This document shows positions 32,181-64,000 of a DNA stretch of 64,000 nt, one piece after another; positions within the stretch are counted from its first letter, which is position 1, and each line of letters starts with the position of its first letter. The notes below the pieces were generated by a model. The model was not told the origin of the DNA. It searched no databases and saw only the letters and a list, made by a program, of their open reading frames with translations. A program made the translations under genes and the position numbers. This DNA comes from Massalongia carnosa (lineage: Eukaryota): positions 1,488,001 through 1,552,000 of the forward strand of contig OZ287071.1 in NCBI GenBank assembly GCA_965645245.1, in the 5' to 3' direction.

Positions 32181-32615
32181 TGCCAACTGATCGCAAACCT
32201 AGAGTAACGGTTGCAGCCGCGTGTCAGAGAAACTAGAATCTTCTTTTCTTATTCGTCAGCCTCTCCATCTTTGAGGCAAGCAACGCCTCTGATGGCCAAG
32301 CTGCTGGACTTCACTCATCAGAAACGAGGGCAATAAGAGATATGAAAGCAGCATAAACCATGAAGAGGGATCTGAGAACTCAAGCCATAAACCAGAGTAA
32401 GCAGTTCCGGTTTTCCATCATATGCCGAGGGGGTTGTATTGGGCACACGAGTACTTTACGCACTTACTGGCTGAGAACGCCATTAGCCCTACAAGGTAGA
32501 AACGGCTGAACCCGCAACGTTCTTTGATAACCCCCTTACTCTGGATGTTAACCAATTAGAAGTGGTTACAAGAGTACCTAAGCGAGAACCTAATCGAGGT
32601 GCTTTGTACAAGGTA

Positions 32616-35366
32616 CAAATCGGGTACCAGAAGTCACCGATCGATGACGTCATTTTACCCCATCGAAAAAAACCCCCTCATTTTCCATCTCCCATTTCTC
32701 TACCATTTTTCTTTCAATTTACCTCATGCCTTCAAAACCGAAGACCAAAAGACGTGAACATTCAGCCGAGACCATTTCCACCATCATTGCCCTACATCAG
32801 CTAAATAAATCCCATGGTCAAATAGCTGACCATTTGAAATTAGCTAAATCGACCACAGTGGGTGTCAAAAGTTTTTACCTAATGAGGGTAGGATTTTTAA
32901 GCGAAAGTCCCCCATGTGGATGAAATTTTTTTTAGATTTCCTCCCCCAATCAACCATGGCACCATCTACTCCACCACCACAGGCCAAAAAATCCCCTGAT
33001 GCTGATACTATCAGAAAAACCCGCCTTTTTCATGCTATTGATCATCGGCCGGAAAATGTCACCATCAAAGATGTCTGCGAGCAGGAGAGCATCAAGCTCG
33101 ATCAAGGAAAATATTGGCTGAAGCAACGCCAGCGTCTTGAAGACGTCGCCTATCGACGACGTTCTCGTAGCGGTCGACCTAAAAAAGTGAGCACTCAGTT
33201 GATAAATCAGATGCTGAATCCACATACAAATAGCGTTCGCGATCAGCCGTACACCGTTACAATTGGAGCACTTACATATATATGCAATGCGACGTACACT
33301 GCAAAGAGCATTCAGTACTCGCAAACCTCGTGCCGCTCGATTTAAAAAAGCGAAGGTGAAAACGCTCAGTCAGAAAAACGAGCGACTACGAGTTCTATAC
33401 GGGAAAGAGCATGAAAATCATACTATTGAGAATTTCTGGCAGTACGTTCATTTCACGGATGAGGCTCATTTCGACCCGGATCAAACGTACCAAGAGCGAG
33501 TTCTTCGAGAGGAAGGCACTAGATACGAGTTAGAAAACATGCAAAAGATGCCGGACATGAAGGGAGTAAAACTGCATGTGGCCGCTTCTATTTTGTGGCA
33601 TCATAAAGGGCCGCTGACGTTTTACAATGACGAGCACGACGCGCCTGAAATTCTGGTTCACAAGCCCAGAAAACCACGCAAGTCGAAGTATGAAACGGAG
33701 CATGATCATCGTCAGCGAATAGCTGAATGGGAGGCATCTCTACCTCACGATTTAGAGATTAAATCAAAAGGCAATAGCATGACTCAAGCTTATTATACGG
33801 AGCGTCTGCTTCCCGGCTATATGACTGAAATTCATGAATGTCGTGTTTTTCATGATCGATTTTGCATCTTTCAAGAAGATAACGATCCTAGTCACGGCAC
33901 ACGATCTACAGACAATATCGTACGTAGATTCAAGGCAGCTAGCTGGATTGAAACGTTGAATCATCCTCCGCAATCCCCTGATCTCAATCCAACGGAAGGG
34001 GTATGGAATATTCTGAAACAGCGAGTTAGACGGCGACGGTGCAGCAATGTGAGAGAGTTAAAACGGGTGATTCTAGATGAATGGGACAAAATATCTATAG
34101 ATGAAATTCGGGCCCGAATTAAGGAGATGCCTGATCGATGTAAGAGATTAATAGCGACGGAGGGCAAAGCAATAAAATCCGATCTATGGTAAATTCTGAT
34201 GATTTTGGTGAGGTGCCTTGAAAATTTTGGTGAGGGCCCTGACCCCCATTAGGTAAAAACTTTTGACACCCACGTGGACCGTTACCACCATTATACATCG
34301 TCATACCAGGTCTTCAGAAATAATCCCCTTGAGAAAAAACGATTCGGTCGTCCCCCCAAGCTTGATGCCCGTGCCAGACGTCAATTAATTCGTCATGTGG
34401 AGAGGTTTCCTCACGACAATCTACTGTCTTTGGCCACCCCTTCCAAAACGGGACAGAAGACCTCTCGCTCCACCGTACGAAGGTATCTGAAGGCGGCCGG
34501 TTATTTACGCTTTAAGGCTCGAAGGAAGCCCTTTCTAAATGAACGTCACAAGAAGGCTAGGCTGGCCTGGGCTCGAGAGCACAAGGAATGGACATTGAAT
34601 GATTGGCTACGTGTTATATGGACAGATGAAGCTACGTTTGAAACGGGTTTAGACTCTCGAAGTTGCTATGTTACACGCCGAAAAGGAAATGCATTTGAGG
34701 CTCGATACTTAAAGCCTACATTCAAAAGTGGAAGAAGCACTATAGGCATTTGGGCAGCTATAACTCTGAGTATCAAGGGACCGATGCTCGTTTTGACGAG
34801 AGGAAGACGAATGAACTCTGAAATCTACATTGAGGAGGTGCTAAAGCCGCTGGGAGTGACCTTTTATGAAAGATGCGTGGCAAAGAGAGGTCTGATGATT
34901 TGGATGGATGATGGGGCCGGTTATCATACTTCAAAGAAGGTGCTTGATTTTGGACGAGAGGTAGGGCTTTTACGCATGAAATGGCCGGCTCAATCACCAG
35001 ACCTCAACCCCATTGAGAATCTGTGGCGTATCATCAAAATACGAGTCAGTGCCCGTCGTCATCAAATTCATTCAGTTGAGGCCATGACGGAGGCATTGGT
35101 GAACGAATGGGACAAGTTGACTGCGAGGGACTTTCAGAAGTGCATAGCGAGTATGCCTAAACGTTGTCACATGGTAATTAAGGCTCAGGGGGAGGCCATT
35201 AAATACTGATTATTTCATCTGATTTTTCATTCAAAATTTCATTAAATTTGAAAATTTGAGACCATTCCATCAACTATTGAATTTATGGTAGGGGTTGAAA
35301 GTTAGGGTAAGGAGGTGAAATTTGATGGGGTGCGGGGCACGGTCGGTGACTTCTGGTATCCGACTG
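32616..35366 (+). mobile_element. Tc1/mariner DD34E transposon (element A), TA-flanked, interrupted by element B
   Basis: TIRs CAAATCGGGTACCAGAAGTCACCGA (32616) and CAGTCGGATACCAGAAGTCACCGA (reverse complement, ends 35366), with TA on both sides. Transposase from ATG 32726 to 35209 with WTDE, WMDDGAGYH and SPDLNPIE (34 residues between D and E); frameshift near 34335. Confidence 0.92.
32854..34276 (+). mobile_element. IS630/Tc1-like DD38E transposon (element B) with CAC...GTG termini, nested in element A at a non-TA site
   Basis: About 30-bp TIRs CAC(A)GTGGGTGTCAAAAGTTTTTACCTAATG. Transposase 32956-34192 with one frameshift near 33260 (HFTDE, FQEDNDPSHG, SPDLNPTE). Removing B and one GAC copy restores the host frame LAKSTVTTIIHR. 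Confidence 0.9.
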
Positions 35367-35368
35367 TA

Positions 35369-36700
35369 CAAGGTTGGGTGACATTGGTCCGTGCCCCCCC
35401 CCTAAATTTCGAAAAACTGCCCCTTCTACCACCATTTTACATTGATCATTCGTCAATCACATGGCTATTACACGCAGTTTTCGAAGTCCCCGTAAACGAG
35501 GTGGCTATCATGGTTTAGAATGGGGTACGCCCATTAAAAATCAATGCTACGGTCGCATGGACGCAGGGCAATCACTGCATAGAATTCATGCCGTCACAGG
35601 GGTGCATCGGGACACTCTTCGTAAATGGCGAAAACAGCGCGATATTGGAACCACAGTCAGAAGAAAAGGTGCTGAACGGGCTGGAAAAGCACGAAAAGTC
35701 TCCGATTGGGAAATCAAAAAGGTGCTCAATTGGGTGCTAAAGGAGAAATACTCTGGAAGACGTATGTCATTTGCTTAGTTATGCAAACGTCACAATTTAC
35801 CAATTCATCCTCGAACTCTCGCACGACGTTTAGCTCAATTGGGCTATCGCAAAATGCACTGCATGCCCGAACCCTTTCATCAATGAAAAGAATCGAAAAA
35901 TTCGACTCGCTTTCTCTGTAAAGTTCGAGAACTGGACGCATGCCTGGAAACGACTTCGATTCAGTGATGAGAGCACGTTTTACACGGGCAAACATAAAAA
36001 GGATCAAATTCTTCGCAAGGCGGATGAACGATACTGTCTTGATTGCATTCAGACTCGTTTTCGGAGTGGTAGAACGTCGTTTTCAGTATGGGGAATGGTG
36101 GGGTGGGGGTATAAATCAAAACTGGTGTTTTTGCAGAATTTCTCCGGGGCCAGGGGAATGACCAAAGAAGACTATATAAAACAGGTGCTACTACCTGTCG
36201 TTTCTCCGTACTTTCAGGAGAGTAATTATATTTCTCCTTATGAACGTACGGAGCATTCCCTTCATGCCCGAGAGTTCGGTGAAATTCTCTTTCAGGAGGA
36301 TGGAAATCGAGCCCATGGTTTGGGGTTTGGAAAGCGAAATCTTTCACAACTGAAAGACTCATTCAAAATTCCTTTTTTTAATGATGGAGCATGGCCTCCA
36401 TGCTCACCAGATCTCAATATAATCGAGAATGTTTGGAGGATAATCAAGCAACGAATCGGAAGTTATGACATGGTTATCACTACTCTGGATGACATGAAGA
36501 AGGCCGTTCAGCACGAATGGAACGAGGTAAAACAAGAGGAAATTGACAATTTGGTAGCTACAATGCCTTCTCGTATAAAGCAATGTAAAGATAGAGAAGG
36601 TAACGCAACAAAATGGTAGAAATGAAGATGTTTTGTTGTTGTTTTGTGACTGTTTTTCGAAATTTAGGGGGGGGGCACGGACCAATATCACTCAACCTTG
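35369..36700 (+). mobile_element. IS630/Tc1-like DD41E transposon (element C), TA-flanked, abutting element A
   Basis: About 48-bp TIRs CAAGGTTG(G/A)GTGA(C/T)ATTGGTCCGTGCCCCCCCCTAAATTTCGAAAAAC; TA at 35367-8 and 36701-2. Disrupted transposase 35461-36619 (RFSDE, FQEDGNRAHG, SPDLNIIE; in-frame TAG at 35776 plus frameshift). Confidence 0.92.
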
Positions 36701-36896
36701 TACAGTTATACCGTCCAGCCTCATGCCATTTCTGCTCTACAAACATCGCTGGCGACGTAGTGTATCTTTACAAATACAATTGCTCCAGTCCCGATGCCAA
36801 TCTCAATTAATTCGCGGGCCTGCTCAAAGATCTGCCTTTACCACAACGCCTGGCATCCCAAGGCGCATCCGCCACATGCAGCATATTAAAATTACA

Positions 36897-38910
36897 TCAT
36901 CCGGGCCTTTTGTGAGCGAGCGGAACGCCATCATACTTATCGAGCTCACTTCCATCCCCAGAGTAGCCAATCTGATCCCGATTATCATCAATGATACGTG
37001 CATATTCGAGGAGAAGGCGGAACATGTATATCTAAGAGGTTCATATAAGTTTCGGTGCAAAACTCATGACCCTGGAAAGAGTCAAGACTCACTTCAATGT
37101 CCTCTCTTCGCAGAACCTTGCTGGCCCACTCTCTCCCTTGATCCGCTATGCGTTTGCCCTCAGAATCGTGTCTTGCAACGTATGGATGGCTGTCAGAGCT
37201 CCCGTTATCCGCTGCTTGCTGTTGGATAGACATGCCCAGGCCAACAAAGTAGGTGAGCAAGCTATACATATCATCGTACCTGTTGTCCATGGGAACAAAA
37301 TGTCGCCAAGCAAAAAGCCTCGAGTCATGCCATTCGCGAAAGATGGTCGCCTTGATACGTAAAGACTTGCTTTGAAGGAAAGCGTGCCAGCGTCCCGAAA
37401 AGGAATGGCCGTCAACATCAACAAGATACTTGTATTTAAATTGCTCAGGCAGAGAGACCTCGGACTTGAGAGAAAACACGTTGTCGTAAAAGCTACAGTC
37501 TGGTATGCATCCCCAAGTCTCCGTAAACCCAACGTCTGTATGCTTTTCGGCGAACTCAGACGGGCGAAATTGCCGGAAATTTTCGTATTCGCCCCTTTTT
37601 TCGGGTTGTTCAGCTAAGATCCTTACATCTTTACCTTGCATTTCAGTGCCATTGGTCAGCATGACCAATCGTTGACGATGCATTTGTTGCCAGTTATCTT
37701 TATTCTGCGTCCCGCCAGAAGTCACACCCCGCCAAATCATAACTTCTTTCTTGTCATCCCAATGAACGTCGTGCTTGGCGCTGTAATCATACCGCTTATC
37801 ATGTTTCCAATACATGTTGGCAGGGAAAAGGATATCGCTATTCACGTTGACCTTGCACTCGCCAAATATCGGCACGAGCCGTTTAGTGGCAATGACAGAA
37901 GAACTGGAGAAGAGGAAACCATGTTTGTCTTTAATTTCAGGCCCTACCGTACATAAGTCAGAGCTGCGGTTGAAGTTTGTGATGATTCCCCCGAAGCGAT
38001 CTTTGTAGAGGGCTTCGGCATCAAACGACGTCGTCCGATGACTTCGCGCGTGAGCTTCTGGTGGGCAAGCAGTGCTAGCAATGTCCATGTACTGTTTCCC
38101 ATGAGCTGCATACCACTCGGGATCTTCCTTTGGCGTCCCGTCGTCATCCGCGGTCATATTCAGAAGTTCCTGCATTTCCATAGTAAACGCATCGCTAGTT
38201 TCAGGTGGGGTTTTACGGGTTTTTAACTCTTTTTCCAGGAGATCCTGCATATCTCCCCATGGAACCACCACTCGTGGCTGATCTAACCGGTTCATAGCAA
38301 TATCCATGTCTGGCAAGTATTTGATGAATTTTTCGATCAGCGTCACCATTGTCTCGGATCTCCAGGAACCGTGTGTTACTTTCGCAACCTTGTGATTTCG
38401 AATGTGGATGCCCGCCACCCCTTGGCTCTCGTCTTTCCACATATTTGCGGCTAAATTCCGTAACACCCGGGGTTCAACTGCCCAAAAAGGGCGCATGTCA
38501 TCCATTATCTGCTCAAAGTCATCGATATTGTGAACGTCCTTTTTCCGTGCGTATTGATACCAGTCTTTGAAACCTGGAGGGGGATGTCGCCCATATCTCC
38601 GCCTATATCTGCTTACGGTCTGTCTGAAGGTTGTTGATCGGCTATCCTCATATGTGCGCCACGTCTTGTCAGCTTGCCTCATTAGCAAGGATATTGGATG
38701 CTCGTCGACGGGCTCTGGGGAATCGTCCAAGTTCTCGCCGTAATGCCATGGTTTCTTTTTCAGCCCTGGTATAGCAGGAACCGGTATACTATGGATCTGT
38801 GATTTGATGTTTGACTCTGAGAGTCGAAGAAAATTACCAATCGTGATGAGTAGAGTAAATGCCGCAATAGCGAGAACGAGAAGCTGCCTGTTGGGCTTGA
38901 GTGAGGCCAT
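36897..38910 (-). CDS. CAP10-like glycosyltransferase family 90 (putative xylosyltransferase)
   Basis: N-terminal TM anchor; YRRRYGRHPPPGFKDWY; LPDMDIAMNRLDQPRV; WRGVTSGG; YKYLVDVDGHSFSGRW; ATIFREWHDSRL. Last exon IYMFRLLLEYAR ends with TGA at 36897. Confidence 0.9.
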
Positions 38911-39224
38911 GTTTATCTAGGTTGTTGGAATGACATATGGCGCATCGACGAAAGCTCCAACATGCGCTCGGTGGAGACTATAAATAAGCTCAAAGCCATA
39001 TCCCTGATCTATAATACATAACGCTATTCAAAGAGAAGTATGTATTTGGCTAAAGTAAACGAACTCCAGGAGTTTTAATTGAGGGATGTAGTGAGTTACC
39101 GGAGGTTTCCTGAACGACTTCCATACCACTAAAGAATACTTAACTTATCACGTGAGTAGCATTAACGCTATCTATCGAGTTGGTTAGCGAGTCCAGTTCT
39201 GGCTGGACCGCCGTAGCTGCTTGG

Positions 39225-39487
39225 CACGCGGCTGACAAAAAAACCGGGACACCAAAACCTGCTTCCCGGAACAAATCAAGCAAACTTTTCAAAAAAACAT
39301 CTTTTCTTGAAAATCATTCAGCAACAAAAACAACCTGAAAAATCTTGAAGTCTTCTCAGATGACAGTACACATATCAATCTTAAATTCCTGAAATTATTA
39401 AGTGTAGGAAAAAATAATTGCATGATATTGTTCTACGCGTAAGAGTGCTCAAGTTTTTGGTGTCCCGGTTTTTATGTCAGCCGCGTG
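39225..39487. mobile_element. 263-bp MITE with CACGCGG termini and 5-bp TSD (CTTGG)
   Basis: About 35-bp TIRs CACGCGGCTGACA(A/T)AAAAACCGGGACACCAAAA; CTTGG at 39220-39224 and 39488-39492; AT-rich non-coding interior. Confidence 0.88.
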
Positions 39488-39630
39488 CTTGGTTAGTACG
39501 GAGTACGAAGTACTCAAATTTACTACGGCAAAAAGACTCAAATAGTATTGGAAGATTAGGAATACGACTCTTCTATCTACTTTCGGGTAATTATCAATTA
39601 GCGTGTTGAAAATAGGGGTGAATACGAGTA

Positions 39631-42600
39631 CAATCGGGTACCGGAAGTTACCGTCCGGTCGATTTTACCCCATCATTTGCCCCTCTTTCACCATATTAAA
39701 ATAATTTTATCTAGATGATGCTGAGATTTGATGGTAAAACACGCAAATGGTAGATTATATGCTACCCTATTTCATACTTTCAATAGGCTAATATTTGATG
39801 GAGCCTCCTTTTGCTGCTATAACCAATCGACAACGTTTTTCCATGCTCTCTATACACCTCCTGAAATCCTCCTCAGTAAGCAGGCCCCATTCCTTCTCTA
39901 TCGTCACTTTCATCTCATCAACTGAATGAATTTGATGTCGTCTTGCACTGACTCGATGTTTTATGATGCGCCAAAGGTTCTCTATGGGGTTGAGATCGGG
40001 TGATTGGGCTGGCCAATTCATGCGTATCAACCCCAATTCATGGCGATATTTGGTGGTAGTTTTTGAGGTATGATATCCCGCCCCATCGTCCATCCATATC
40101 ATATAACCTCTTTCTTTGATGCATCTTTCATAAAATGGTAATCCTAGCTCTTTTAGAACCTGGTTGACGTAAATATCGGAGTTCATGCGCCCTTCCTTCT
40201 GTAAAAAGTGAACTGGTCCTTTCAACCCCAAAGTTATAGCCCCAAATCCCTATCGTGGTGCGTCCGCTTTTGAAAGTAGGCTTCAAATAACGGGACTCCA
40301 TTGCCGTGCCTTTTGGCCGTGTCACATAGCAGGATCGAGTATCTAAACCTGTTTCAAAAGAGGCTTCGTCCGTCCATATAACATGCAACCACTCTTCCAA
40401 CTTCCAATTGACATGATCTTTGGCCCATTTCAGTCTGGCTTGCTTGTGATGATGATGATGATTGATTCTTGTACCGATCTGACACCGGCCGAAGGCCGGC
40501 CCATGCGGGCTATCTACTTATTCTTACAGGGAAAACCTTTTAAAGGAATAAAAACCATGCAGACTGCGCCATTATCCCAAAAGTATTCCGTTTCTGGACT
40601 ACATTCTTCGCTCGATGTTCTGTGAAATCCTTGACAAAATGAGAGTTATCACTCGTATAACAGTTGCGATGCTAGTGAAAATTGGGTCAGCAAATTTGCT
40701 TTTATTATCCATGTGGTTAGTTTTTTCAACATTTTCGACGAGCTCATGATCGTTCGATAGTCGTTGGTGCCTATTTGTTTTAGCACTTCGTATCTGCCGT
40801 CGATTAGCCTGCAATGTAGAATAATGTGTTTGGCTGTCTGCTTCTGCCATCCGCACGAGCAGGCCGGGGTCATAACGCCCGGTACCCGACGATTGAACAG
40901 GAAGTTTGACAAGCCTATTTTTTCGGTGCGGATTTGCGTGGTTAGCGCGCTTTCTGCTTTCATCAGGTTGTTGTGAATCTTCAGTCTCGTCCTACTGAGA
41001 GATCCCAACTGTGCCTCTGTCGGGCGGGGAATGCGGTTCTGGTACGTCTTCCATTTGGAGTCCCAGCGTTCCTTGATGCGTTCTGTGGTGGCCTTTGTGT
41101 GTTTCTCTATGGTATGGCGTGTCGTGGTGCATTTTTCGAGGTGCGCCGGGTCGGGTGTGGACCAGGGCGGGGGCGATGGGGGCATTGTGACTGGTGCCTC
41201 GTTATTCAACATTTTGCTGGCCCATTCGTATTTCAACTCTCCTGGGGTGAGGTGTTGCGTTCTTTTGCGCCCTGCCTTACCCCGTAGCTTGTTCGCTATT
41301 GTGTTGCAGGCTTTGGAAATCAGTTTCGCCTGCCCTGCGGCCCGTAGACGATACCTTGATTTTATCTGTAGATTGTCCAGATGCAACTCCATGGGGGCGA
41401 TGAACGTTTCCGCTTCGAGAACTTCGACGGGTGTTGCCTTGAACGCCCCTGTCACGGTGCGTAAGCATTTGTTCTGCATGACGCTGAGTTTGGACGTCGT
41501 GGCCTTGTTTTTCTTGATTTCCCTGGGTGTGTGCCACACGGTGCTTCCATAAGTCATTGCCGGGCGAACGATGGCGGTGTAAACCTGCCGGGCCTTCGCG
41601 AAAGAAGCTCCCCAGGTAGATATCGATATTTTTGTGAGCGCCAGCGACTGCGACGTCATCTTTTCCTATGTTTTCCGTATGTGGGCTCCCCATTTCAATT
41701 TGGTGTCAATTTGGAGGCCCAGAACTCGTATGTCCGTTTTCGGTTCTATTAGGTTGTTTTCTATTTGAATAGTAGCCGACATGTCGAATTTCTTTGGATT
41801 TCTGGACAAATGAATGAGCTCATACTTATCCGGTGCAAATACGGACCCGTGGCGTGCCGCCCATAGTTCGCATTTTCTGTGAATTCTTTCGAGGGTTCTG
41901 CAGTTTTCTTCCGTGCTTTTGCCGTATGCCAACACATTTACGTCGTCTACAAATCCTAGCGCGCTCGTGTTTGTGCCGGGTCTCTCGCATATCTCTAAAA
42001 GGTCTGCATTGTAGAACAGGTAGAGAATAGGGGAAATAGGTGAGCCTTGAGGAATGCCCGTGCGCACCGCGAACTCCTCGGTTACTCGCCGGTTTATCGT
42101 TAGCGTGGTTCTTCTTTCCTTCAGAAAGCTTGCCGTCCAGTCTGTGATCCATTTCGGGATTTTCCTTTTTCGCAGATTGTGTATCAGCCTGCGATGAGAC
42201 ACTGTGTCGAATGCGCCTGCTACATCCATGCTGAGGAGAGTTGCCACCTTGTTGTTGCCTTGTCCCCATACAGTGTGTACCTGTTCGGTGAGGAGTTCGA
42301 GCGCAGACTCGGTAGATCGGCCACGCCGAGTACCCATTTGTGTGTCCGGCAGGAGCCGGTGCTGTTCTGCTATATGAGTGATCTTCCTTGCGATGACTGC
42401 TTCTAATACCTTACCCATTGTGTTCAGTAAAGCTATGGGTCTGTATGACTTTGTACTGGTATTGTCTTTCTTTCCCGGTTTTCTGAGCGCGATCGTGTTT
42501 GCTCTTTTGAACTCGCGGGGATGATACGCATGCGTGACGCAAGCCTGAAATAAAGGGGTTAGCAGCTCTGCTAGCTTTGTGGAGCATGCCTTGAGAATTC

Positions 42601-45600
42601 TGTTGGTGATCCCGTCAGGGCCCGGAGCCTTGTCGGACTTAAGACGTTGTATGTTTGCGATCACTTCGTCATTTGTGATTGTCATGGGGCAATCCGCGGC
42701 GGCGGGGTAGAACGACCCAAATATGTCGCTCAAGTCGGCCGGCGGGGGGGGGGAAAGAATTTGGCTTTCAGCATTTCCGCTTTTTCTTCGAACGTCTCCG
42801 CTGTTTGCCCTTCGTGCCTCAATGGCGGCATTTTCGGTATCTCGCGGGGCTTCTGACTCTTGTCTTTTGCCCATCTTGCTAGCTTCCATATGCCCAACGG
42901 CGACTCGGTGGCTTTGCTTATCTCTTTGCGAAATGAGAGCGTTTTTGCTTTTTGGATTGTCTTTTGCTTCTTGTCGTTGGACTTCATATATGCCTTCCAG
43001 TCGTCTAAATGGCGCGATGACGACCAGAAGCGGCGCAATTTGCGAGTCTCGCGGGTGGCGCGGTTGCATTCTTCGTTCCAAAAGGGTTTCGCATATTCGC
43101 TGGGTCTGGCCCAGGGGACGGAGGCGGTTATGATTTTCTGCAGGAATTCTTGAATTGTCTGAGCGTACTGGTCTATTTCTGCGGTTGAGCGGGGGTGGGT
43201 TACGGGCGGGGCGTTGCTTTCAACCTCCCTCACTTTCTCCATGTTCAGCAGCTTCCATGCTCTGCGCTTTACATTCGTTAGCTGTTCACTCCCGAGAAGA
43301 ATGCGAGTGGATATCGGAATGTGATCAGAGGATTGATTCATTTCCGGTCTTGACATGCAGTGTTCCAGTCTTTCCGCCAGAAATTCCGACATGAATACTA
43401 GATCTATAGTGCTAAAAGAGTTTCGGGCCTCCCACGTGGCGGTTCCTTTGGGCAGCGTCAGTGAGAGGTGAAATTCTTCTACTATATTCAATAACTGATC
43501 TGCGGCTGCGGGTTGTGTTGGCCTTGTGATTCCATTCCAAAAGGGGTGGTGAAGATTGAAGTCGCCGAGAAGAACGTGCTGTGCGTCTAGGGCAAGCTGC
43601 TGGCGTACGACAGGGAGTGTGGACGGGCTGTCTGTGGATGAATAAGATGACGGGGACGGGTTGTACACGTTATGAATGTGCAGCACTTTCGTAACCCCAT
43701 CGGTATACACGTTCAATTTCAACGTGCATAGATCTGCGGTAGGGAATTCTACTTCCCAGCTTTCCGGGTCTATTTTCTCGTTAACGTAAAAACATACGCG
43801 TGTGTCACCGCCGGGACGATACAGAAGATGAAATCCGCTTTGATGTGAGCTGAGCGTTGTGGGAGCGTGCGTGCTCCGCCACGGTTCCTGTATTGCTATA
43901 ACATCGTAGTCCTGCGTGTTTAAATCTGCCAAAAGTGGAATCATGTGCTTACTCGATCATTTCTGACGTTTTACTGTAGTATGTTAATGGAGTTTGTGTC
44001 CTTCATAAATCTCCTTCTTCCATTACGTCCGTTGCCGGGGCGGTGGGGTGGTCCGATTCTGGGTCGGCGGGGAGGGAGATGTTTCAAGGGTCGGCGGGGG
44101 GGGGGCAGGATCCGTGCGGGACGGGGCGGGTGTTGCTGCGGTTGGTGTATTTGGTGGTCTGCCAAGAGTGGGCTTTGCCATCGCTCTTTGCATGTTCATG
44201 GGTTTCATGGTCTCCGTGTCCTTCCATGACATGCCCGCTACGCGGCTGGGACCTGCCGAGGAGACTTCTTGGGAACCCGCTGGGGCGGTTTTCCTTTTCT
44301 TGCTTGTGACGACCTTCCAGGCACCGTTGACGGGTCTCTCCGTTGCCTCCCCTGGTGTTGCGCTGCATTCCTTGTCCGTTGAGGTTTGAGACGAGAAGAT
44401 GAATGACCGTGCTACGATCGGGTCGCCCGTGACGAAGAGCTGGGGTGAGCTTTTCCTGGCCTTCTCTATCTTGCTCATTTCTAGTAATCTGAGTTTGCAT
44501 GTTGGGGCCCACGCTACGTGGCCTCTCTCCTCGCAGCATGCGCACCTTTTGTGTTTACCTGTTGTTTCTAGGTTGCATTCGTTGGTCGAGTGCCCGCCGG
44601 CGCAGAGCCCGCACGCCGTTGGGTTGCGGCAGCGATTTCCTATGTGTCCATATTTATAGCAGTTGAAGCACTGCGTTAGCTTGCAACTTTTTACGAATTT
44701 TTCGCAATTCTTAATCTCATGATCGACGAGGAAGCCCTCGGTGATGAGGCGGTTCGCCATAGCGGGAGTCTCTACTTCTACATGCAGCGACGAGTATGTC
44801 TTCATTTCTTTGATGGCCCTGAACGACTAGGCGATTCTCGTGATTTTAGGCCTGAGTGTAATCGTGCGTTAGCTGCCTGCAGGTATTGTATGGTTTGATT
44901 CTGATTGGTGGCATCGATATGTGCCATCTTTACTCCGCTAGCTCGTACTGCATAGGTGCGGCGTTGGACTGTAGCAGACGCCGCAATCGCGGTGATCCAT
45001 TCAGTGTTTTCATGTAAGGTCTTCTTGACCTCTGCTGATTCTGCGTGAATTCATATGTCTCCGCTTGTAAGTCGCGATATTCCCACTATCCCTTCGACGT
45101 TTTTCTGCAGCGATTCCACCAACTCCTGAGTGGGCATCTGTCTCACTCTTTCTCGATCGGCCTCGTTCGTGACTCGTAGTGTGATCTCCCGGGCCCTTTT
45201 GGCCTCGCTGGGGGATGGCTCTTTGGTTTTTTGGGGTTTGGGGTGCTTAAGATTGTACGTCGGGCTTTGCCCGGCCTGGTTCTGGGGCGCCAGCGGGGTG
45301 GCCGCGGCGGCGTAGCCTGTGGGGGGCTCCTTATTCTTTTTAGTGCCTTCCATGCGATTAAGTGCGTTTCTTATGTCCCGTAGGGACTCTGCTACCGTGA
45401 CGGTGTCTTCGTTTTCCGAATTAATGTGAAGCTGGGCTTGCAACGTGGCTTTAACCTCCTTCAACAGAGTTTGCGCCACCGGGTCTCCTACGCTGTTACC
45501 GGGCTTTAAGTACTCATCTATCTTTGCTCCCAAGAGCTTTATCTTCTCCTCCTGCTCCTTCTTGCGTTTCTCGCGGTCTTGTGCGAGTGTGTTGATCATT

Positions 45601-46133
45601 TTCGAAGTTTCCCCTAACTATCTCTGGCTTGCTTGTGTTTGAAAGAAAGAAACGGCTTTTTTCTGGCCTTGAATCGCAGATATCCCGAACTCTTCAGATA
45701 TCTTCGTACGGTGCCTCGAGAGAGAGAATTTCCAGATTTGGAAGGAGTAGCCAACGCAGCCAAACTGTCATGAGGATAAAGCTCTACATGACGAATTAAA
45801 GCTCTTCTAGCACGAATATTCAGTTTCAAAGGTCGACCAGCTCGTTTAGTAGAGCGCAATGGGTGGTGGGAATTCCCAGTCTCTCGATGAATGATGGTGG
45901 TGATGGAGGACTTAGGAACGTTTAATTCTTTAGCTATTTGACCATGCGATTTATTCGCTCGATGAAGAGCAATTATCACCGCAATGGTCTCAGATGAATA
46001 TTCACGTCTAGCATTTTTTGGTATGAAAGGCATTATTTTATTTACTAATTTGATGATAGAATAGTATCAATTTGAAAAGTTTCGATGATTAGCTAATTAG
46101 CGAAATCGGACGGTGACTTCCGGTACCCGATTG
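39631..46133 (-). mobile_element. Tc1/mariner DD34E transposon (element D, same TIR family as A), interrupted by a LINE
   Basis: 27-bp TIRs CAATCGGGTACCGGAAGT(T/C)ACCGTCCG with TA on both sides. Transposase N-half 46033-45623 and C-half ~40433-39788 (WTDE, WMDDGAGYH, SPDLNPIE). Confidence 0.93.
40449..45622 (-). mobile_element. Tad1-like non-LTR retrotransposon (LINE), near full length, disrupted
   Basis: 15-bp TSD TCTGGCTTGCTTGTG (40434-40448 / 45623-45637); (CAT)n 3' tail. ORF1 gag with three CCHC-type knuckles (45599-44023). ORF2 with APE endonuclease (IAIQEPW, GDFNLHH, SDH), RT (KAPGPDG, YRPIALL, GIPQGSPISP, FVDD) and C-terminal CSCG...HIILHC, ending at 40649. Confidence 0.95.
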
Positions 46134-46235
46134 TACAAGGTTACCTTGTATTGTACTTCGTACTTACTATGTAGTACAGACTCGACTTTAATAAACCTCG
46201 TTTACGGAACATAGAAGATCAACAACCTCCTCACA

Positions 46236-55137: not shown

Positions 55138-55207
55138 CTTTCTTCTTCTTCTTCTTCTTGTTGTTGTTGTTTGTTTTGTTGTTGTTTTTGTTGTTTTTTT
55201 GTTGTTT
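55138..55207. repeat. Compound (CTT)n/(GTT)n microsatellite
   Basis: A run of ctt repeats followed by imperfect gtt repeats. Confidence 0.85.
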
Positions 55208-55733
55208 GGGTGCTTCTTCATGCTTCTCTGTTGCTCTCTTGCTGCTTTCTGGCGAAGTTTTCCATGCTTCTTCGTTAAAGCGATCATGCTATCTTTTCAA
55301 GAACGAAAACGGGCAATCATCAATCTTATATTCGTGGTGTATATATACAATATATATAGAATCCCTAAGCCGCGGCGTTCACATGATCTCTTGCTGAGCG
55401 AGATAATGCTGTTTTGCTCCCGCGCTAAGGACCATTTCGATGTCCTGCTCTCTGATGCTCCCTTTCTGCTCCCCTATGCTCTCTTTTTGCTTCCCCATGC
55501 CTCCCTTCTGCCTTCTTCTGCCCCCTCCTGCCCCCTTCTGCCCCCTTCTTGCTCCTTCTCCTCCGCCGCCTTTTATTCTCAACACCCTACTCTATTCCCT
55601 CCTCCGCTGACAAGGTTGCGCTACCAGCCTAGCTCAGAAGTGACAACATCTCACGCGCAGGACTCCGGAGTCGGATCCAGCGGTTCCCTCGATTCTAGGA
55701 ACAGAAATCATATCATCTCACTGATTTTGAAAA

Positions 55734-58100
55734 TCATAGCAGTACTAACGCAGGTTTTATCCTTCTTTCCATTTGGTTGTTGACCGCGCACACTACGCAA
55801 GTGTTTCGACCTCGTATGACAAGGGAGAACGCACTCTCGTCTGTAGAATTGTAGAAATCGTCTAATTGCAGCCATCGGGCATCAGGATTTTCGGAAACGT
55901 AGAAATACCATACATCCGTTGATGGAGGCGAGTCTGGTGAGTGATGGATTGAGAGCTTGGGCAGCTTTTTTGGAACAGCAGTGTCATGTCTAATTACAAC
56001 TCTCTCGGTTGAGTCGTTACGGCTTTTCTCATCTTTAGGCCATTTGGTCTCATAACTGAAATTTGCCAGTCCATCGATAGGAGTCTTCAATAGTGCTGTG
56101 TCTCCATTGCACGGCCCATCGTTCAACCTATCTATCCAGGAGATCACACCAACTGGATCGTTCTCGTCACCACTAGGATGTTGGCAAGGAGCAAGTCGCT
56201 CCGCTCTTACGCAAAGCTCCTGCATCTCTCGAAAGCCAAGCTTATGTTGCTTGTCTGTCTTGTTCATAGACTTCCAATTGAATGTCTGCGTGACTTGGAA
56301 TGCATCTGCGTGATGACCAACAAGGACTTGTCCTTTGGTGGCGCTTCCAACGCCAGGGAAGTAGGTGATATGTGGATCCTTTCTCAAGGTTTCCCCGGTA
56401 GTAAATGACATCCTGATTTGTGTGGGGCCGTCGATTATTCGAGTTTTCCGAAGACTGCGGCGGGTTGGCACGCCGCACATAACGCGCATGGTATCTATAG
56501 AGACGTCTGCTGGATCTATTGCGTCAATGGATTCAAAGAAAATGCTCCAGCCCCAGGCGCTGACAAGAATCGCATTCTTGACGTAGTCCTCGGAATACAT
56601 GTGACCCAAAAGTAACCGCGATAGAATTCCAAACGAGCCGATGAGGTTCAAAGATCGAGTGCTAGTACTGTTAGTGGTAATCTTGTCGATTCCATGATCG
56701 GCTTTCTGCAATCTTTGATGCTCGTACAAAGACAACGGCATGGCAGTACATTTTTGGAGATCCTCTTTCCGTATTCTGGCAAATGTCACCAGAATGGCGA
56801 CCAGGCCAGTCCAGTTGACCTGGTTCATGAGACTTGCCCTTTTTGGAGATAAATTGACGCATGAATCTATGAGCATAAAGTCTAGGTTATCCAGAGCGAA
56901 CAGGAACTGCCCAGCTCGAATAAGTCGCTTTCGGGAAGGATTTCCAGACGCAAAGGAGAGACTGTGCGAGGTGTCCGCCTTTGGGTGTGCTTTCGTAGAA
57001 AAGTGGCTGCTGTTAGGAGAATCATCTGAGATACCAGGCAGAGCGCGGGCAATGATCCAGTGCGAGTAGTAATGCCTCTCATCCTCTGGCACCTTCGCAT
57101 GCTTTAGTGCGGTCATACCGAAGCCATAAGCCTCCGCTCGATTCTCGTAATAAAGAGTTGGATTGCTTTCGTCGCTGGCTAAGGTGAACAAAGGCTCATG
57201 CTGATCTGCCGGGTCCATCAGTGAAGCACCTGCATGCGCGGAGTCACTCTCTTCAACGAGAATGTTGCTTGTGCCTTTGCCAAAAGTGATCTCTGACCCT
57301 CGTAAAGAGACGATCACGGTCAGACCTAGGACGTGGTGACACCAGACTACTGTAGTACTAATTCCAGTATCACATCTGAGGTGGAGTAGTCTGTGTTCAG
57401 GAAAGCTTTGCAAAGATTGCAGCCACATAATTAATGACTGTAGTACAGCGAAAGGCAGAGCACGGGTTGTGACACTATAGGGGTTCGCTATCAACGACGT
57501 ATCCACTTTTCGCCTCTTTGCTGTATGTCTTGTTCGTTTTCCCGGCTCAGCTGGCTTGAGCGCGTCCTGGATTCTTCGTTCGACCGATTCATAGAGAGTC
57601 GCCCATTGGAAGGCAGCCGTTTGCTGTCCACAGGCTCGTAAGGTCCCCAGCAGCGAGACGTAATCTGGCACCATTTCTACCTCCGCTCCCGACTCTTTGA
57701 CTATTCTCTCAATTGCCTCTACCATTGCGTTGGCCAGCGACTCGTGTTCGTGGGCAAAGGCCAGAGCGGAGAGCTGTATTACCATTGAGAAGAGAGCAGG
57801 GTTCTTCATCGCTTCTTGCACTGTAGGTCCTGACCCAGACTCCAGCAAAATATCAATGTACCTCGATATAATCGTCTGATCTGCTTTCGCAACCATTTCT
57901 CGAAAGTGGAACTTGATGACTTCGTCGATACGGTGTCTTCCGATCAGAGAAGCCAGTTTCATCTCCGTAATAACGTCTGATCCAGACTTTTTGATGGCGT
58001 CGACTAGAGCTAAAGATGTGAGAGCTCCAACTGCCTGACTCAATGGATTGACGATGTTCGTCAGCTCCAGACCCAACTGGAATTGCACAGGGAGCGGCAT
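55734..58100 (-). CDS. Intronless 788-aa hypothetical protein with C-terminal CxxC
   Basis: Long uninterrupted ORF with globular-protein composition, ending IRGRNTCVVCAVNNQ...; no domain recognised. Confidence 0.75.
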   Translation of the reverse strand: MPLPVQFQLGLELTNIVNPLSQAVGALTSLALVDAIKKSGSDVITEMKLASLIGRHRIDEVIKFHFREMVAKADQTIISRYIDILLESGSGPTVQEAMKNPALFSMVIQLSALAFAHEHESLANAMVEAIERIVKESGAEVEMVPDYVSLLGTLRACGQQTAAFQWATLYESVERRIQDALKPAEPGKRTRHTAKRRKVDTSLIANPYSVTTRALPFAVLQSLIMWLQSLQSFPEHRLLHLRCDTGISTTVVWCHHVLGLTVIVSLRGSEITFGKGTSNILVEESDSAHAGASLMDPADQHEPLFTLASDESNPTLYYENRAEAYGFGMTALKHAKVPEDERHYYSHWIIARALPGISDDSPNSSHFSTKAHPKADTSHSLSFASGNPSRKRLIRAGQFLFALDNLDFMLIDSCVNLSPKRASLMNQVNWTGLVAILVTFARIRKEDLQKCTAMPLSLYEHQRLQKADHGIDKITTNSTSTRSLNLIGSFGILSRLLLGHMYSEDYVKNAILVSAWGWSIFFESIDAIDPADVSIDTMRVMCGVPTRRSLRKTRIIDGPTQIRMSFTTGETLRKDPHITYFPGVGSATKGQVLVGHHADAFQVTQTFNWKSMNKTDKQHKLGFREMQELCVRAERLAPCQHPSGDENDPVGVISWIDRLNDGPCNGDTALLKTPIDGLANFSYETKWPKDEKSRNDSTERVVIRHDTAVPKKLPKLSIHHSPDSPPSTDVWYFYVSENPDARWLQLDDFYNSTDESAFSLVIRGRNTCVVCAVNNQMERRIKPALVLL

Positions 58101-61100
58101 TTTAAGAAGGTTTCTTGCGTCTTATTCTCCTCTCGCGCTCCTCTGGCGCAATGGGGTTGGCTCATGCTACTGCTCCTTCGATGCCATTAGATACAATGGG
58201 GCCATTGGAAACCCAACAGCAACAACGGCGGGGTGCTAGGTTAGCCAGTGATGACCAACAGCTAATCGAGCAAAAAGGAATCTGCTCAGATGGGTAGAGT
58301 CAAAGACCGACGTTCCTTGTGCCAAGACTCAAGATTGGTTGTAACGCGCACCCAAATTACAACCGAAGTAACTAACCTGGGTGACGACTAGTGCCCTAAC
58401 CAGGCTCGCCAGGGAACGCTAAATAAATCATGACAATAAATATCCCACATGCGGAGTACTACACTTGGGAATAGAATCAATGAGATGATATCAGCTAAAT
58501 CAATGAGTCAGAATCGACCAAGTCTGAGTCCTGAAGAAGAGACATCAATCACGAACCGGATTTTCTATGTCTGTAGGACCGCTTGTCACCACTTGTTGAG
58601 CAAACTCGCTAGTTAGGGCTATGGAATTGCTTCGGAAAAAGCGCGATACAGAGTCATCAGGAGTCGATTGAACATGAAACATCCCTTGATCGCTGTCCTG
58701 ACCTTAAGTCTATGTACATTTCTCCCTTGGCGAAGGAACGCCTATTTGTCGTGGGGCAGAGACGGACATTGCGACGCGAGACAGTTTGGTGGGAAGCTTG
58801 GCAGAGCACGGAGCATACGAGTATCTACCTCGTGTTTACCCACCAGCGCTAAAACTAAAAAGATCAGAACAAGCCCAAATCTCTATGGAACTGTCTGAAA
58901 CCTTCAGAATCATCAATTCATATGGTTATAAACTCAATACATAATGTCCTGAGATTGGAGATTTTCTTTCGTTATCACAATCATTATGGCAGTTGATTTT
59001 AATTTTGTGGTTAGTAATCAGGAAGATTAACTTAGCGGCCGCGTCAAGCGCTGGTGCAAAAGGAGGTAAACACACGTGACACAGTAAGGCGAACTCCGCC
59101 CCGAGGATGACTTGCTTATCCATCCACTCCTTTCTTGCAGCATCTATCTGAGATGTCAAAGAAGTTCTGGAAGGCAGAAGAGCAGATGATCATTTCTGTA
59201 GATCGAAAGGGCTGACTTAGCAAGAATTAACTAGGCTAACTGATTAGGAAAAATGCGTTCCCGTTTTCTGAGCACTTCTTTTTATCATTACTGAAAAAAA
59301 CCAACATATTCCTGCAAAGGTAAAAATTTCTTATTTCTATTGCATCTGTCGATAGCGAAGACATCCTATTTTGATCACTCGATGATGACACAGACAATGT
59401 AAAACGCTTGTTTCCTGAGCGAGCGGTTTTATCTAAATGGGTAGATATATGAAAGTTTCAACGATTTTCATAAGCGCACCTCCTCCTGTGACATGATTCC
59501 TTGTTCATCATCGAGATCAAGTTTGTCTCATCACTCAGAAAATTCTTCAGAAGAAATGAAAAGATATATATTCATCACATTTGAACCCGATTCCGGAAGC
59601 TTAGATTTGTTTGGCAAAGCTTTAGGCAAGAAACCGGGGGTTTCCTTGTCATTGGACGCGACTGAATAGCTAGCCCTCCCGGGGGGGGCTCTGGTTTATC
59701 GAGTGGAGATCTTTGGCTAAGTAACTACTGCCGCCGCATCTCGGATCGCCTCCTCCTTGACCGCTTATATGCTTATGATGGCGGGTTGAATGAGTGCCTT
59801 AGGGCCCTTACCTTATAACGACTGCCCCTTAACTCGATTTTTTATCTGTTTTTATTAGTGTAAAATATGATCGATATGATATCTTTTGTCAATGCTATCT
59901 CTATGAGGTTCTCTCACCTTACTAGATCAGACTAGAGGAGATTAGAGATGTCAGCATCCTGGATCCTAACCATCGGGCATCTAGTTTTCTTTCCCCCCGC
60001 CGACCACAATCAATGGTGTGCTTCCGGACAATCACCAGTTCTTGTTGATTGGGTGTTGAGAATAAAATCTTTGGACTTGTTACTCTAGCGGGTCAATGTG
60101 GAGACTTTGGTAGCGGTGGACGCAGATCTGTCCTCGTCATACAGCTTCGGGTCCTCATGGTTATCTCCGCCTTCTCTATCGTTCTTCTTTAATAGCGTAG
60201 AACTTGAGCGAGTCATTAATGTCACAGCTTTAGATAAGAAATCCAGTAGCAATGCTGCTGTGTGTGAGATCGGATCGTCTGATGGATGGATAAATGTGCT
60301 GTTTTGCGGACTCGAATAATTCCACGGCTGATCTTGAGTTCAGAATAAAGTACCTAACAAACGCCACGGAAGGCGAGTTTCGCCGTGGCACCATTGGTAT
60401 ACCTCGGCAAACGAGCAACGACGATTGAAGAAAAATCACCCGGAGCAGATCGCACAGCAACCAGATCTCCCTTTTCCACAACAGACTTTGCGCTTTTCAA
60501 GCTCTTGTAGACTCTTCCTCAATTTTTACATTTCTCCACATCATGCGTTCATAACCTGTTAACGAGTAATAGTAAGAGTACCTGTATGCGTCTAAATAGA
60601 GCGAAGTCGGTTGACTTGGGACGGCAACGGGTAATGAGAGAACGAAGACTGTACGCAAAAAGGGGAAGATCGGATGATGATCCCCACCGGTGCATCATAG
60701 AAGGACAAGTGTAAAAGAATGGGAGATAGTGCATAAATGGAAAGATGAGAAAATATCACCACCCTTCCTAAACTTCATGTCGCCCGAGTGCGGTCTTGAA
60801 TTTGGAAATATTCGGAAGACGATATTGAACGACTCGAAGGATTAGAAGAATCGTCATCACGAACCCAGAAATAAAGAATCTCGAAGTTCAACTGCGTAAA
60901 GATCTCAAAAATTGACTGTTATAATCTTGTGAAGCTTCTACAATCTTCGTGGAAATTCGAGAAATGCCAATGATCACTCCAAAGCTGTCCTGCCCAATCA
61001 GTCGAGCCGACTCCGACTTCTTGTTGTCGGGCGAGTAGCACATGCAAACTTAAAATCCATCGCCAACTCGACTATATTAATCGACCAGGCAGTAGACGCT

Positions 61101-62605
61101 AAGGCTGAGTTTCATCGACTGGCCGGGTATCGCTCTGGCTTGAGTTCTCGACATCTTGTAGATATTTAGCATTCCATTGTTCTCTCCCAAGTATCAATGT
61201 GCTTTCCATATGCTTTCGGCGTAGGCGCCTTCTAGCTCCGTGAAGTCTGACGTATCCTCTTTGAGAGTCTTCTTCTGTTTTTTTAAAAATAGTACAAGAT
61301 AGTTTTTATTTTTGAGGACCAGCTCCTTCAGTTTTTTCTTATGATTTCTCTCTCGGTCTCATTTGCCTCTAAAGCATCACGAGGGTCTTCTCCATACATG
61401 AACGTGTACAATCCACCGCTGTCGGTTTCATTATATATATTTTCAGGATTTCGAGGTTTTTTTAGTGGCTGAAGAGTATTGGATACTGCGCTCGCAGTTC
61501 TGCCATTTGATTCGATTAAGGCTTTCTTGCATAGCGGTGGACGTTAGCGGAGCATATATTTAAGAAGAAGAATAAAGGCTTTGAAGGTTTGGTATTCTAT
61601 CGTAGCCGAGTTCGATGAAGACAGAATAATCAGGTAGTGTAATAAACAAAGATACAATTTCATATTAGCATTTGCTTCTGATCGACATCAACTAAGAAAC
61701 TTCTCCTGCATCGTACTCTCCTCGTACCTTGGCTCTCGGCGAACGCACCAGCTCACTTCGAGCCAATATGGAATGTATAAAAGTACTGCCGCAACAAAGG
61801 CAACTCGTTGGCTGAACTTATAATAATAGGATTTTGTTTAGATCCTTTGGTGCAGATACAAGTTGTAGTACCCAAATTAGACTTGATATCCCTTCATGAA
61901 GACGCCATTACAATTCGCTCGAAGAGACTCGTAAAGGTTTACCGCCCTGTGGATGCTGCCTCGGCTGAAGCAATTCTAGCAGCTCCAGCTCCAGCACGGC
62001 GAAGCTCGACCATAGAAATCGACTTGCTAGCAAATTATCTCAGAGCTCCTATGGAAACGATATTCGTCAGAAGTAAGATGTAACTGACGAATCGCGATTC
62101 TACTGGCGATGGATCTCTGGTTACAATAAATTCTATGTTCCTCGAGGTAGGACATATGTTCGCCGAAAAATGTGTTGATTATTGGTAACAATGACTTGGC
62201 ATGATTTTTTGAAATTTTCGGTATAAGAAGTTCTCACAATAATTCGATTTTTACAAAAATGATGCAAATTTAACCAAGTCTTGTTTGTAAATCTTCTTGC
62301 ACGTCAATTAACGTTTGTTAAGGCGTGTTATTTTCTTCTTGTACTAAGAGCTGACATTTTGTTAAATTTTAATGTGGGTCTTAAAAATTTAAAACTCATG
62401 ATGTTTCTTTCTATTTTTATGATAATCATTTTCATCTAGTAACACCATTCATAATCTTCAAGATTATCATGCCGATAGCGGCCGATGATTCTTAGAAGAC
62501 TTCCAAGCGCACAACGAAAAGAACAGCACCGAAAGGGAAAAGAAAGAGTCTGAAAGACCAAGCCCGAGGAGTTGGCAAATGTTGAATATCCAACTCCTAC
62601 CAGCA

Positions 62606-62652
62606 CAATGAACACGTATTAGTTCAATGAACACCTATCAGTTCAATGAACA
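62606..62652. repeat. 19-bp tandem repeat, 2.5 copies
   Basis: CAATGAACACGTATTAGTT / CAATGAACACCTATCAGTT / CAATGAACA. Confidence 0.8.
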
Positions 62653-62688
62653 TAGCACCTACGGCTGCCCTATATGGACAGACCTACG

Positions 62689-64000
62689 CACGCGGGGGAC
62701 AAAAAAAAAACTACACCAAAATTTAACCGGGTTCAAGCCCCCACCAAAACACAAGCAATTTCCATACAATTTTGATGGGATAATCACCATTTCAACAACC
62801 AGTCATCCAATTCATTCAATCTATTCAATAACCAGTCATTTTACCCTCACCATCCAAAACAGCTCTCGATCTATCTGGCATAGTAGACACCCGTTCATTG
62901 ATAAATGCCTGGGAAACGTTCGCCCACCCCTCATAAATTAGCCCCTTGGTCGTATCATCATCCCAATGAGGATATTTTTTTAAATATTGCTTCGGGGCCT
63001 GCCAGCAATTTTCTATGGGGGCCAAATCAGGTGAACATGGACAGTTGAAATAGTGCTTCAGATCATTGTTCTGCTTCCAAGTGCGTACAATGTTTGATTT
63101 GCCTGGTCCATGTCCAGAATCACCGTCTTCTTCTAAGACGAAATCGCGTTTTGCTTCAATTGTAATGGGCTACGAGACCAGTAAGCTTATCACGAGCGAC
63201 ACTGATCTCGAAAGGGGAAATGCTCAGCGTGAGAGGTGGAAGATAGCTACTACGTGCTGGTCTCCGAGAGTATATGTGATCCAAAGAACTAATCGATGTG
63301 GAAGTGCTCAGACCAAGAGATCTCGTCCGAGACCCAAACGTAGGTTGTTCATAGAATAAAGACTAATTGCTAACGAATACTACAAGATTCGTTCTGGTAT
63401 TTATCCTACTCACCCCAAGCCTATAGCCTTCGACTGAATCTATATCTACACTGCGGACCTGCCTCTAGACACAAGGTCTAGACCACAAGGTCATGTAGGT
63501 TCATTCAGCCGACATCACTACCAACGTAGCAATAAAGGTTGAAGCTGAAGTTTACACCGGGGAGGCCGAGCTCAAGCTGCGTCAAGCTAGCCGTGCCTCC
63601 TGCTACAACTCTTGATCCATCAAGAGATCGAGTAGCTCCGGGTAGGCCAGTAGATTCCATATAGAGTTCACGGCTTCTCCACAGGAGTTCGCCTTACTCC
63701 ATGGCAATCTACCACCACGGCCTCGGCAGGTGTTTGATCTGTAAGCAGTCTAGAACGTAGTAACAACTAATTCGGAGTTGTGTGGCAAGGTGGCGTCGTG
63801 TCAACCTCGACGGCTGTGCGACTAAGTACTACGGCCTGGCTCATGCTAGTTAATCCCGCAACCGCCGTAGGCGATCACGTATCCTTCTAGCGCCATCCGT
63901 ATTACATCAATCCAGGCTTCACAATAGGCTCCAATATAGAGTCGATATAGACTCGTTGACTCATCTTTCCATTGAAGTTTCCAGGAACTTTGTAAAAGTA
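62689..64000 (-). mobile_element. IS630/Tc1-like DD37E transposon (element E), 3' part, with CACGCGG terminus; interrupted by a solo LTR and running off the window
   Basis: Minus strand reads YFYKVPGNFNGKMSQRVYIDSILEPIVKP(W)|IEAKRDFVLEEDGDSGHG...SPDLAPIENCW...GKMTGY* (stop at 62825). Terminus CACGCGGGGGACAAAA at 62689. Confidence 0.85.
63161..63906. mobile_element. Solo LTR (746 bp) inserted in the element E transposase
   Basis: TGTAAT...ATTACA inverted ends; 5-bp TSD TCAAT at 63156-63160 and 63907-63911; transposase sequence continues across it. Confidence 0.9.

Follow-up and report, generated by a model that had tools for sequence, protein, structure and literature searches.

The 64-kb window analysed here (64,000 nucleotides of contig OZ287071.1 of the Massalongia carnosa assembly GCA_965645245.1, positions 1,488,001 to 1,552,000 of the forward strand) contains a nest of DNA transposons. 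The element of main concern, designated B, is a Tc1-like transposon located within the reading frame of another, ordinary Tc1 element, designated A. Two further components bear on its interpretation, namely a miniature inverted-repeat transposable element (MITE) and the 3' part of a second Tc1-like element, designated E; the window contains a single copy each of B, the MITE and E. B is a defective, frameshifted copy of a multi-copy family of ascomycete cut-and-paste transposons. In all likelihood, this family constitutes a widespread ascomycete Tc1-like clade, whose members carry CAC...GTG ends and produce target-site duplications that are mostly 3 bp in length and unrestricted in sequence. 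The positions of the elements and their parts are collected in Table 1.

Table 1. Transposons and associated features of the 64-kb window. Positions are counted from the first base of the window; TIR, terminal inverted repeat; TSD, target-site duplication; ORF, open reading frame; LTR, long terminal repeat.
Feature	Position	Strand	Basis or remarks
Element B, 1423-bp Tc1-like transposon, CAC...GTG ends, nested in A	32854..34276	+	Inverted ends I6; empty-site joint; loose ends of the X6 copy
B, left TIR, CACAGTGGGTGTCAAAAG...	32854..32889	+	Inverted-repeat search, TIR alignment
B, right TIR, reverse complement CACGTGGGTGTCAAAAG...	34242..34276	-	Inverted-repeat search, TIR alignment
B, left copy of TSD, GAC	32851..32853		Joint with 4 ambiguous letters (GACC); symmetric CAC ends give GAC
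B, right copy of TSD, GAC	34277..34279		Sequence, joint
B, N-terminal part of transposase (DNA-binding region), out of frame with the rest	32956..33408	+	tblastn with residues 1-139 of the intact relative P0006, 39% identity
B, catalytic part of transposase, 309 aa, D-138-D-38-E	33263..34192	+	ORF; Pfam DDE_3, E 6.4e-11; 249 homologues
MITE, 263 bp, CACGCGG...CCGCGTG ends	39225..39487		37-nt inverted ends, 95% (I5)
MITE, left copy of duplication, CTTGG	39220..39224		Sequence
MITE, right copy of duplication, CTTGG	39488..39492		Sequence
Element E, 3' part of second Tc1-like family (DD37E), runs off the window	62689..64000	-	Transposase pieces; terminus matches MITE TIR
E, transposase pieces	62828-63160, 63914-64000	-	Match P0121 at 98% and 93%
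Solo LTR, 746 bp, TGTAAT...ATTACA, splits the E transposase gene	63161..63906		TSD TCAAT at 63156-63160 and 63907-63911
Element A, ordinary Tc1, host of B	32616..35366	+	TA on both flanks; 24-nt inverted ends (I8); HTH_Tnp_Tc3_2 and DDE_3
Element C, Tc1-like with the same TIR core	35369..36700	+	TA flanks; TIR I4, 55 nt, 96%
Element A2, relative of A with nested insertions	39631..46133	-	TA flanks; TIR I7, arms I1-I3

The inverted ends of B are 32 nt in length (97%), and near its tip the right TIR has one base fewer than the left. The left end reads CACAGTGGG and has its first base at 32854, rather than at a CAGTG start at 32856. The extent of the element was examined by comparison of window positions 32500-39700 with Logan contigs from four public runs (X1, X3, X5 and X6); the runs containing window sequence include a lichen metagenome. 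In X1, X3 and X5, which derive from three studies, contigs of the host element A join position 32850 directly to 34277, omitting 1426 bases. The shorter sides of the joint comprise 49, 38 and 39 letters, respectively, and 4 letters at the joint fit either side. The uninterrupted site without B is thus AAATC-GACC-GTTACC, which contains no TA. With 4 ambiguous letters at the joint, B therefore duplicated GAC, or at most GACC. The 5-bp duplication GACC(A/G) suggested for B in a first-pass annotation made from the sequence alone is ruled out by the same 4 letters.

A second copy of B occurs elsewhere in X6, in another organism, and is flanked by AAC on both sides. Here, the loose letters ...GAGGA precede position 32852, followed by the aligned bases AC and then by CACAGTG, while AACGGG... 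lies behind 34276; a 4-bp reading of this duplication is impossible. The copies of B in X3 and X5 are one base shorter than the window copy at 33257. The extra base in the window copy therefore accounts for the frameshift between the N-terminal and catalytic parts of its transposase, and copies of the family that lack this base may read through at this position.

The occurrence of relatives of B was analysed further, and their flanks were compared. In total, 249 homologues of the B transposase were detected at E <= 0.001 among 1005 candidates, with full-length proteins of 410-430 aa. One of them, from the ascomycete Venustampulla, bears the UniRef annotation "Tc1-like transposase", and the nearest Atlas cluster of a stored homologue (P0117) is composed mostly of Ascomycota. 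A metagenome scan for the family yielded 80 loci. An inverted repeat around the gene was found by script in 41 of these; in the other 39 it was absent or weak, mostly in contigs that end inside or next to the element. The flank count comprised 30 independent loci that could be anchored at the common CAC...GTG. Those left out were L010 and L027 (no left flank), L049, L056, L057, L062, L069 and L066 (repeat scores of 15-16), L071 (no CAC and no duplication), and L002 and L034 (duplicates of L001 and L033). The elements of the family measure 1.4-1.5 kb and have inverted ends of 22-60 matched bases. In 19 of the 30 loci the inverted match ended outward at the CAC, and in two more this was hidden by a one-base gap in the repeat.

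A 3-bp direct repeat abutting the anchor was present in 12 of the 30 loci, versus 19 of 870 mismatched left/right pairs (2.2%; binomial p ~1e-14). Direct repeats of 4 bp were observed in 6 of the 30 loci, versus 13 of the 870 mismatched pairs. A 5-bp repeat was observed only once (versus 2 of 870), in a locus that also belongs to the 3-bp class; the consistent 5-bp duplication on coding copies, which the first-pass annotation had looked to for support, is therefore not what the family exhibits. TA on both sides, the flank that the same annotation had named as counting against a non-TA habit, was found at none of the 30 anchored loci. The duplicated 3-bp words are diverse (AAG twice, ACC, GTC, CAC, CAT, CAA, GCG, AAC, GCC, GGC and CTC), and the loci that bear them are scattered across the whole tree of the B family. 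Target bias is weak: a C precedes the CAC in 13 of the 19 duplication-bearing loci, and T is the first base in none of 13 three-bp sites. The matched reading frame is free of stop codons in 15 of the 30 loci.

The transposase of the B family was characterized by alignment, domain search and structural modelling. In a 53-member alignment, the catalytic triad is formed by D166, D305 and E344 (P0006 numbering), corresponding to D-138-D-38-E. Pfam detected DDE_3 in 17 of 21 members of the family, and beyond DDE_3 only a few helix-turn-helix models and single weak DDE matches were found among these 21. The sole match of the 53-member profile in the PDB was the Sleeping Beauty transposase SB100X (E 2.8e-28). 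The AlphaFold model of P0006 (predicted local distance difference test score 84) comprises six N-terminal helices followed by an RNase-H-like core, and the six helices ahead of the core are consistent with a two-part helix-turn-helix region. The best fold matches were to the catalytic domain of Sleeping Beauty (5cr4; E 2.1e-10, template modelling score 0.75 on the target), followed by Mos1 complexes (E 3e-10 to 9e-8). When aligned with the family of E, element A and an animal-type Tc1, the B family was seen to carry an additional basic stretch, ~45 residues long, which lies between the first and second catalytic aspartates and has the pattern ...KPRKPRK...WEASLPH...; in the model this stretch is partly disordered and includes one helix, at 246-259. 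By its enzyme the B family is thus of the Tc1 type, while by its ends and its duplication it is non-canonical.

The second non-TA case in the window is provided by E and the MITE. E extends for 139 bp past the stop codon of the Tc1-like gene, up to its terminus at 62689. The Pfam match of E itself to DDE_3 is weak (E 0.0014, below the cut-off, for a fragment of 114 aa); the 361-aa protein P0121 carries PF01498 and PF13358, as do full-length relatives of E, whose family is common in Dothideomycetes and other ascomycetes. The Tc1 type that had been assigned to both enzymes was borne out by DDE_3 matches and by the spacings counted from the translations, which are D-38-E for B and D-37-E for E. 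The MITE is bordered on both sides by the perfect CTTGG duplication that had been reported for it, and neither the MITE nor B is flanked by TA, again as reported. A 3-bp reading of the MITE duplication was considered and is ruled out, since TGG differs from CTT. In X1, X3 and X6, contigs whose flanks differ break off at 39224/39225; the MITE is therefore a multi-copy element, with the C of CACGCGG as its tip. TA was found next to CACG at none of five readable ends (both ends of the MITE, the E end, one X1 contig and one X6 contig).

The TIR of the MITE matches the end of E from the first base (26 of the first 33 bases), and matches the end of B much less well. Moreover, in one X6 contig the same 33-nt TIR leads into sequence similar to the subterminal CCCCACCAAAA stretch of E. 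Judging from the likeness of these TIRs, the MITE was most likely moved by an E-type transposase. E and the MITE probably belong to a second Tc1-like family, distinct from that of B (DD37E, ~361 aa), whose ends read CACGCGG and are not flanked by TA, and this lineage may use a 5-bp duplication, as observed in the single complete MITE copy. For relatives of E, a scan of genome contigs gave only distant bacterial IS630-like or contaminant Tc1 matches, and a scan of viral contigs gave none. The MITE/E end motif was absent from the 80 metagenome loci of the B family, B-type ends aside. Eukaryote-type DD34E Tc1 transposases are encoded at two loci in prokaryote assemblies, L081:1569-2237 (a metagenome-assembled genome of Acidobacteriota) and L082:351-1097 (a Flavobacterium genome); both are probably contaminating eukaryotic DNA.

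The first-pass annotation had united B, the MITE and E in one lineage, on the basis of a shared end motif. The motif, CACGYGGSKGWCAAAA, is indeed present at 34261-34276 (-), 39225-39240 (+), 39472-39487 (-, with one mismatch) and 62689-62704 (+); these 4 matches compare with 0.31 expected from shuffles, a circular comparison, as the pattern was derived from the same sites. The single lineage, by contrast, is not upheld. E is ~33% identical to B and ~34% identical to the TA-flanked element C, and in a quick tree, in which A and C occupy long branches, the families of B and E, represented by 15 and 13 rows, respectively, form separate groups, each with a Shimodaira-Hasegawa-like approximate likelihood ratio (SH-aLRT) support of 99. 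This tree does not bring the two families nearer to one another than either is to C, and gives no resolved branching order with respect to C. The TIR core G(T/C)GGGTG(A/T)CA is common to B, the MITE, E and C; as it also occurs in the TA-flanked C, the motif alone is no marker of a non-TA lineage. The shared core would thus reflect common Tc1-like ancestry and not the non-TA habit, and the core of B presumably resembles that of named Tc1 elements.

Three further Tc1-type elements of the window (A, A2 and C) serve as internal controls, and all of them are flanked by TA. The right end of A and the left end of C adjoin at 35366-35369, with one TA common to both, and the words GTACAAGG to the left of A (32606-32615) recur as at the start of C; this pattern suggests repeated insertion at one site. 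An ORF of 336 aa at 40649-41659 (-) is located inside A2 and forms part of a nested insertion. When the window was compared with other copies (32500-36700 and 39200-39700), C>T and G>A dominated the differences; in the X1 copies, these changes were found at 48 and 46 places, versus 2-25 for most other kinds, an excess reminiscent of repeat-induced point mutation.

The characteristics of the B family can be accommodated in a simple scheme. The transposase would bind the inverted ends of ~30-40 bp through the conserved GGGTG(A/T)CA core and would cut at CAC/GTG. The two 3' ends would then be joined to phosphates of the target that are offset by 3 nt between the strands, rather than by 2, and repair of the gaps would yield the 3-bp duplication. 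The insertion in the catalytic core is, speculatively, a candidate for the changed target capture.

Several observations weigh against this account of the family. The mechanism is inferred from sequence. The anchoring at CAC was the choice of the analyst, and in 9 of the 30 loci the inverted match extends 1-8 bases beyond it. Duplications at the anchor are lacking in 12 of the 30 loci, in 3 of which the two sides differ at one base; chimerism of the metagenome assemblies or decay of the copies may account for such loci. L001 and L033 have AAG and a similar right flank in common, and may represent one ancestral insertion. In the related loci L014, L022 and L032, GCGC lies directly outside CAC...GTG on both sides, and can be either a fixed palindromic 4-bp target duplication or four more bases of the TIR; L032 has an inverted match that continues for 8 bases (ATTAGCGC), with GTT on either flank. 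The duplication of B itself is formally 3 or 4 bp, and the junction of the X6 copy was taken from a loose-end consensus and two aligned bases, rather than from full contig sequence. For the E/MITE family there is one complete copy, and no contig joining across the MITE was present among the contigs listed.

B and its relatives might instead be ordinary TA-targeting Tc1 elements, whose ends were mis-delimited or whose TA duplications have mutated. The CAGTGGGTG... just inside the CAC does recall the canonical Tc1 start CAGTG, and the flanks of B read CA...TG, one transition from TA on each side. This explanation nevertheless has hardly any chance of being correct, given that the empty site is devoid of TA, that the 30 relatives include none with TA on both sides and 18 with a direct repeat of 3-4 bp at the CAC, and that TA-flanked elements were readily recognized in the same window. 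The altered fungal Tc1-like clade envisaged in the first-pass annotation accordingly stands with respect to its non-TA targets, as shown by the empty site, the X6 copy and the repeats in those 18 loci; its 5-bp stagger does not, the value being 3 (sometimes 4). With regard to the MITE, CAC ends combined with a 5-bp duplication are the signature of the Transib/RAG group, and the element could belong to a Transib-like superfamily rather than to the Tc1 type, its likeness to E being the result of coincidence or capture. The 5 bp of the MITE cannot be read as 3, whereas the B family, the sole one with statistics, gives 3-4 bp, and the MITE had no visible coding partner. We consider this origin improbable: the agreement with E begins at the very first base of the TIR, the E terminus lies close to a Tc1-like stop codon with no nested boundary apparent between them, and the X6 contig continues from the same TIR into E-like subterminal sequence. 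No RAG1-like gene was noticed in the window, though no search aimed at one was made.

The family may also be real and already catalogued with its 3-bp duplication, for example in Repbase or Dfam. It is abundant, as the number of homologues and the UniRef annotation from Venustampulla indicate, and many fungal "Mariner" families are deposited in curated repeat libraries without a paper ever describing them. Conversely, the open full-text literature yielded neither a Tc1-like family described with a 3-bp, non-TA duplication nor a publication in which these TIRs are printed, most subscription journals, Repbase and Dfam being outside the scope of that search. Published accounts name TA as the defining feature of Mariner/Tc1 elements (Bao and Jurka 2013, PMC3627910), likewise for those of Sclerotinia (PMC4188875) and for the Trem elements of Paracoccidioides, in which the target of one family could not be defined (PMC2836289). 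In the literature consulted, the only variants encountered were the TAA and TAAA duplications of fungal Fot and Fot-like elements (Gao et al. 2020, PMC7386202) and the CTNAG target of Tc4, given in a figure legend (PMC11071193). Prior cataloguing is accordingly rather unlikely, albeit a more serious prospect than either of the two preceding alternatives.

Taken together, the B and E families raise the wider possibility that lineages of the ascomycete Tc1 branch have abandoned TA recognition and that the stagger itself has evolved, to 3 bp of any sequence in B, with some members at 4 (including a possible GCGC-specific sublineage, L014/L022/L032), and to 5 in E and the MITE. The Sleeping-Beauty-like fold would have been kept, while the CAC tips converged on those of CACTA and Transib/RAG. 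We regard this wider scenario as tentative, its prospects being slightly short of even. If true, it would provide natural Tc1-type enzymes that are free of the TA rule, and a direct means of finding out what determines target choice and stagger in this superfamily. A stagger of 3 nt at unfixed sites would imply that the target word and the stagger can both change on a conserved Sleeping-Beauty-like fold, and the family-specific insertion in the core offers a concrete place to look. TA is used in the literature as an annotation criterion for Tc1/mariner elements; pipelines that demand it would therefore mis-delimit or miss the abundant B family. Since intact relatives exist, with half of the anchored loci free of stop codons, the claim is testable at the bench. 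In principle, B-family enzymes could widen the range of insertion sites of Tc1-type gene-transfer tools.

Among the known systems, CACTA (EnSpm) elements combine CAC tips with a 3-bp duplication. The likeness of the elements described here to CACTA and to Transib/RAG is confined to the CAC tips and the stagger, since B and E encode unrelated, Tc1-type enzymes; no CACTA-type transposase was found by Pfam in the window or among the 21 B-family members, in which only Tc1-type domains were detected. The 5-bp duplication typical of Transib was seen in one MITE copy, whereas the B family gives 3-4 bp. Zator elements, which belong to the wider IS630-Tc1-mariner group, duplicate 3 bp, as do the B family, B itself and the X6 copy. 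In contrast to Zator, the B family matches DDE_3 and Sleeping Beauty, and in the quick tree, which contained no Zator sequence, B groups with fungal TA-type Tc1-like elements. Zator forms a clade separate from Tc1/mariner and related to bacterial TP36 transposases (PMC7386202). The Fot and Fot-like elements resemble the B family in being fungal members of the IS630-Tc1-mariner group with duplications of 3 or 4 bp rather than 2; they differ in their fixed TA-based words and pogo-type (DDD) transposase, whereas the words of the B family vary. Intruder, whose abstract describes a DD38E family of Tc1/mariner with a narrow taxonomic range in animals (PMC7731502), shares the D-38-E spacing, a comparison based on spacing and abstract only, in which equal spacing alone does not amount to kinship. 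The most extensive comparison is with Tc1 proper (DD34E; Sleeping Beauty, Tc1 and impala). As in that group, the B-family element is a single-gene transposon of ~1.4 kb with short inverted ends, whose product contains DDE_3 and a Sleeping Beauty-like catalytic domain. Unlike Tc1 proper, the B family has its last two catalytic residues spaced by 38 rather than 34 positions, an insertion of ~45 residues between the first two, CAC...GTG ends, and a duplication of 3 bp (sometimes 4) of any sequence in place of TA.

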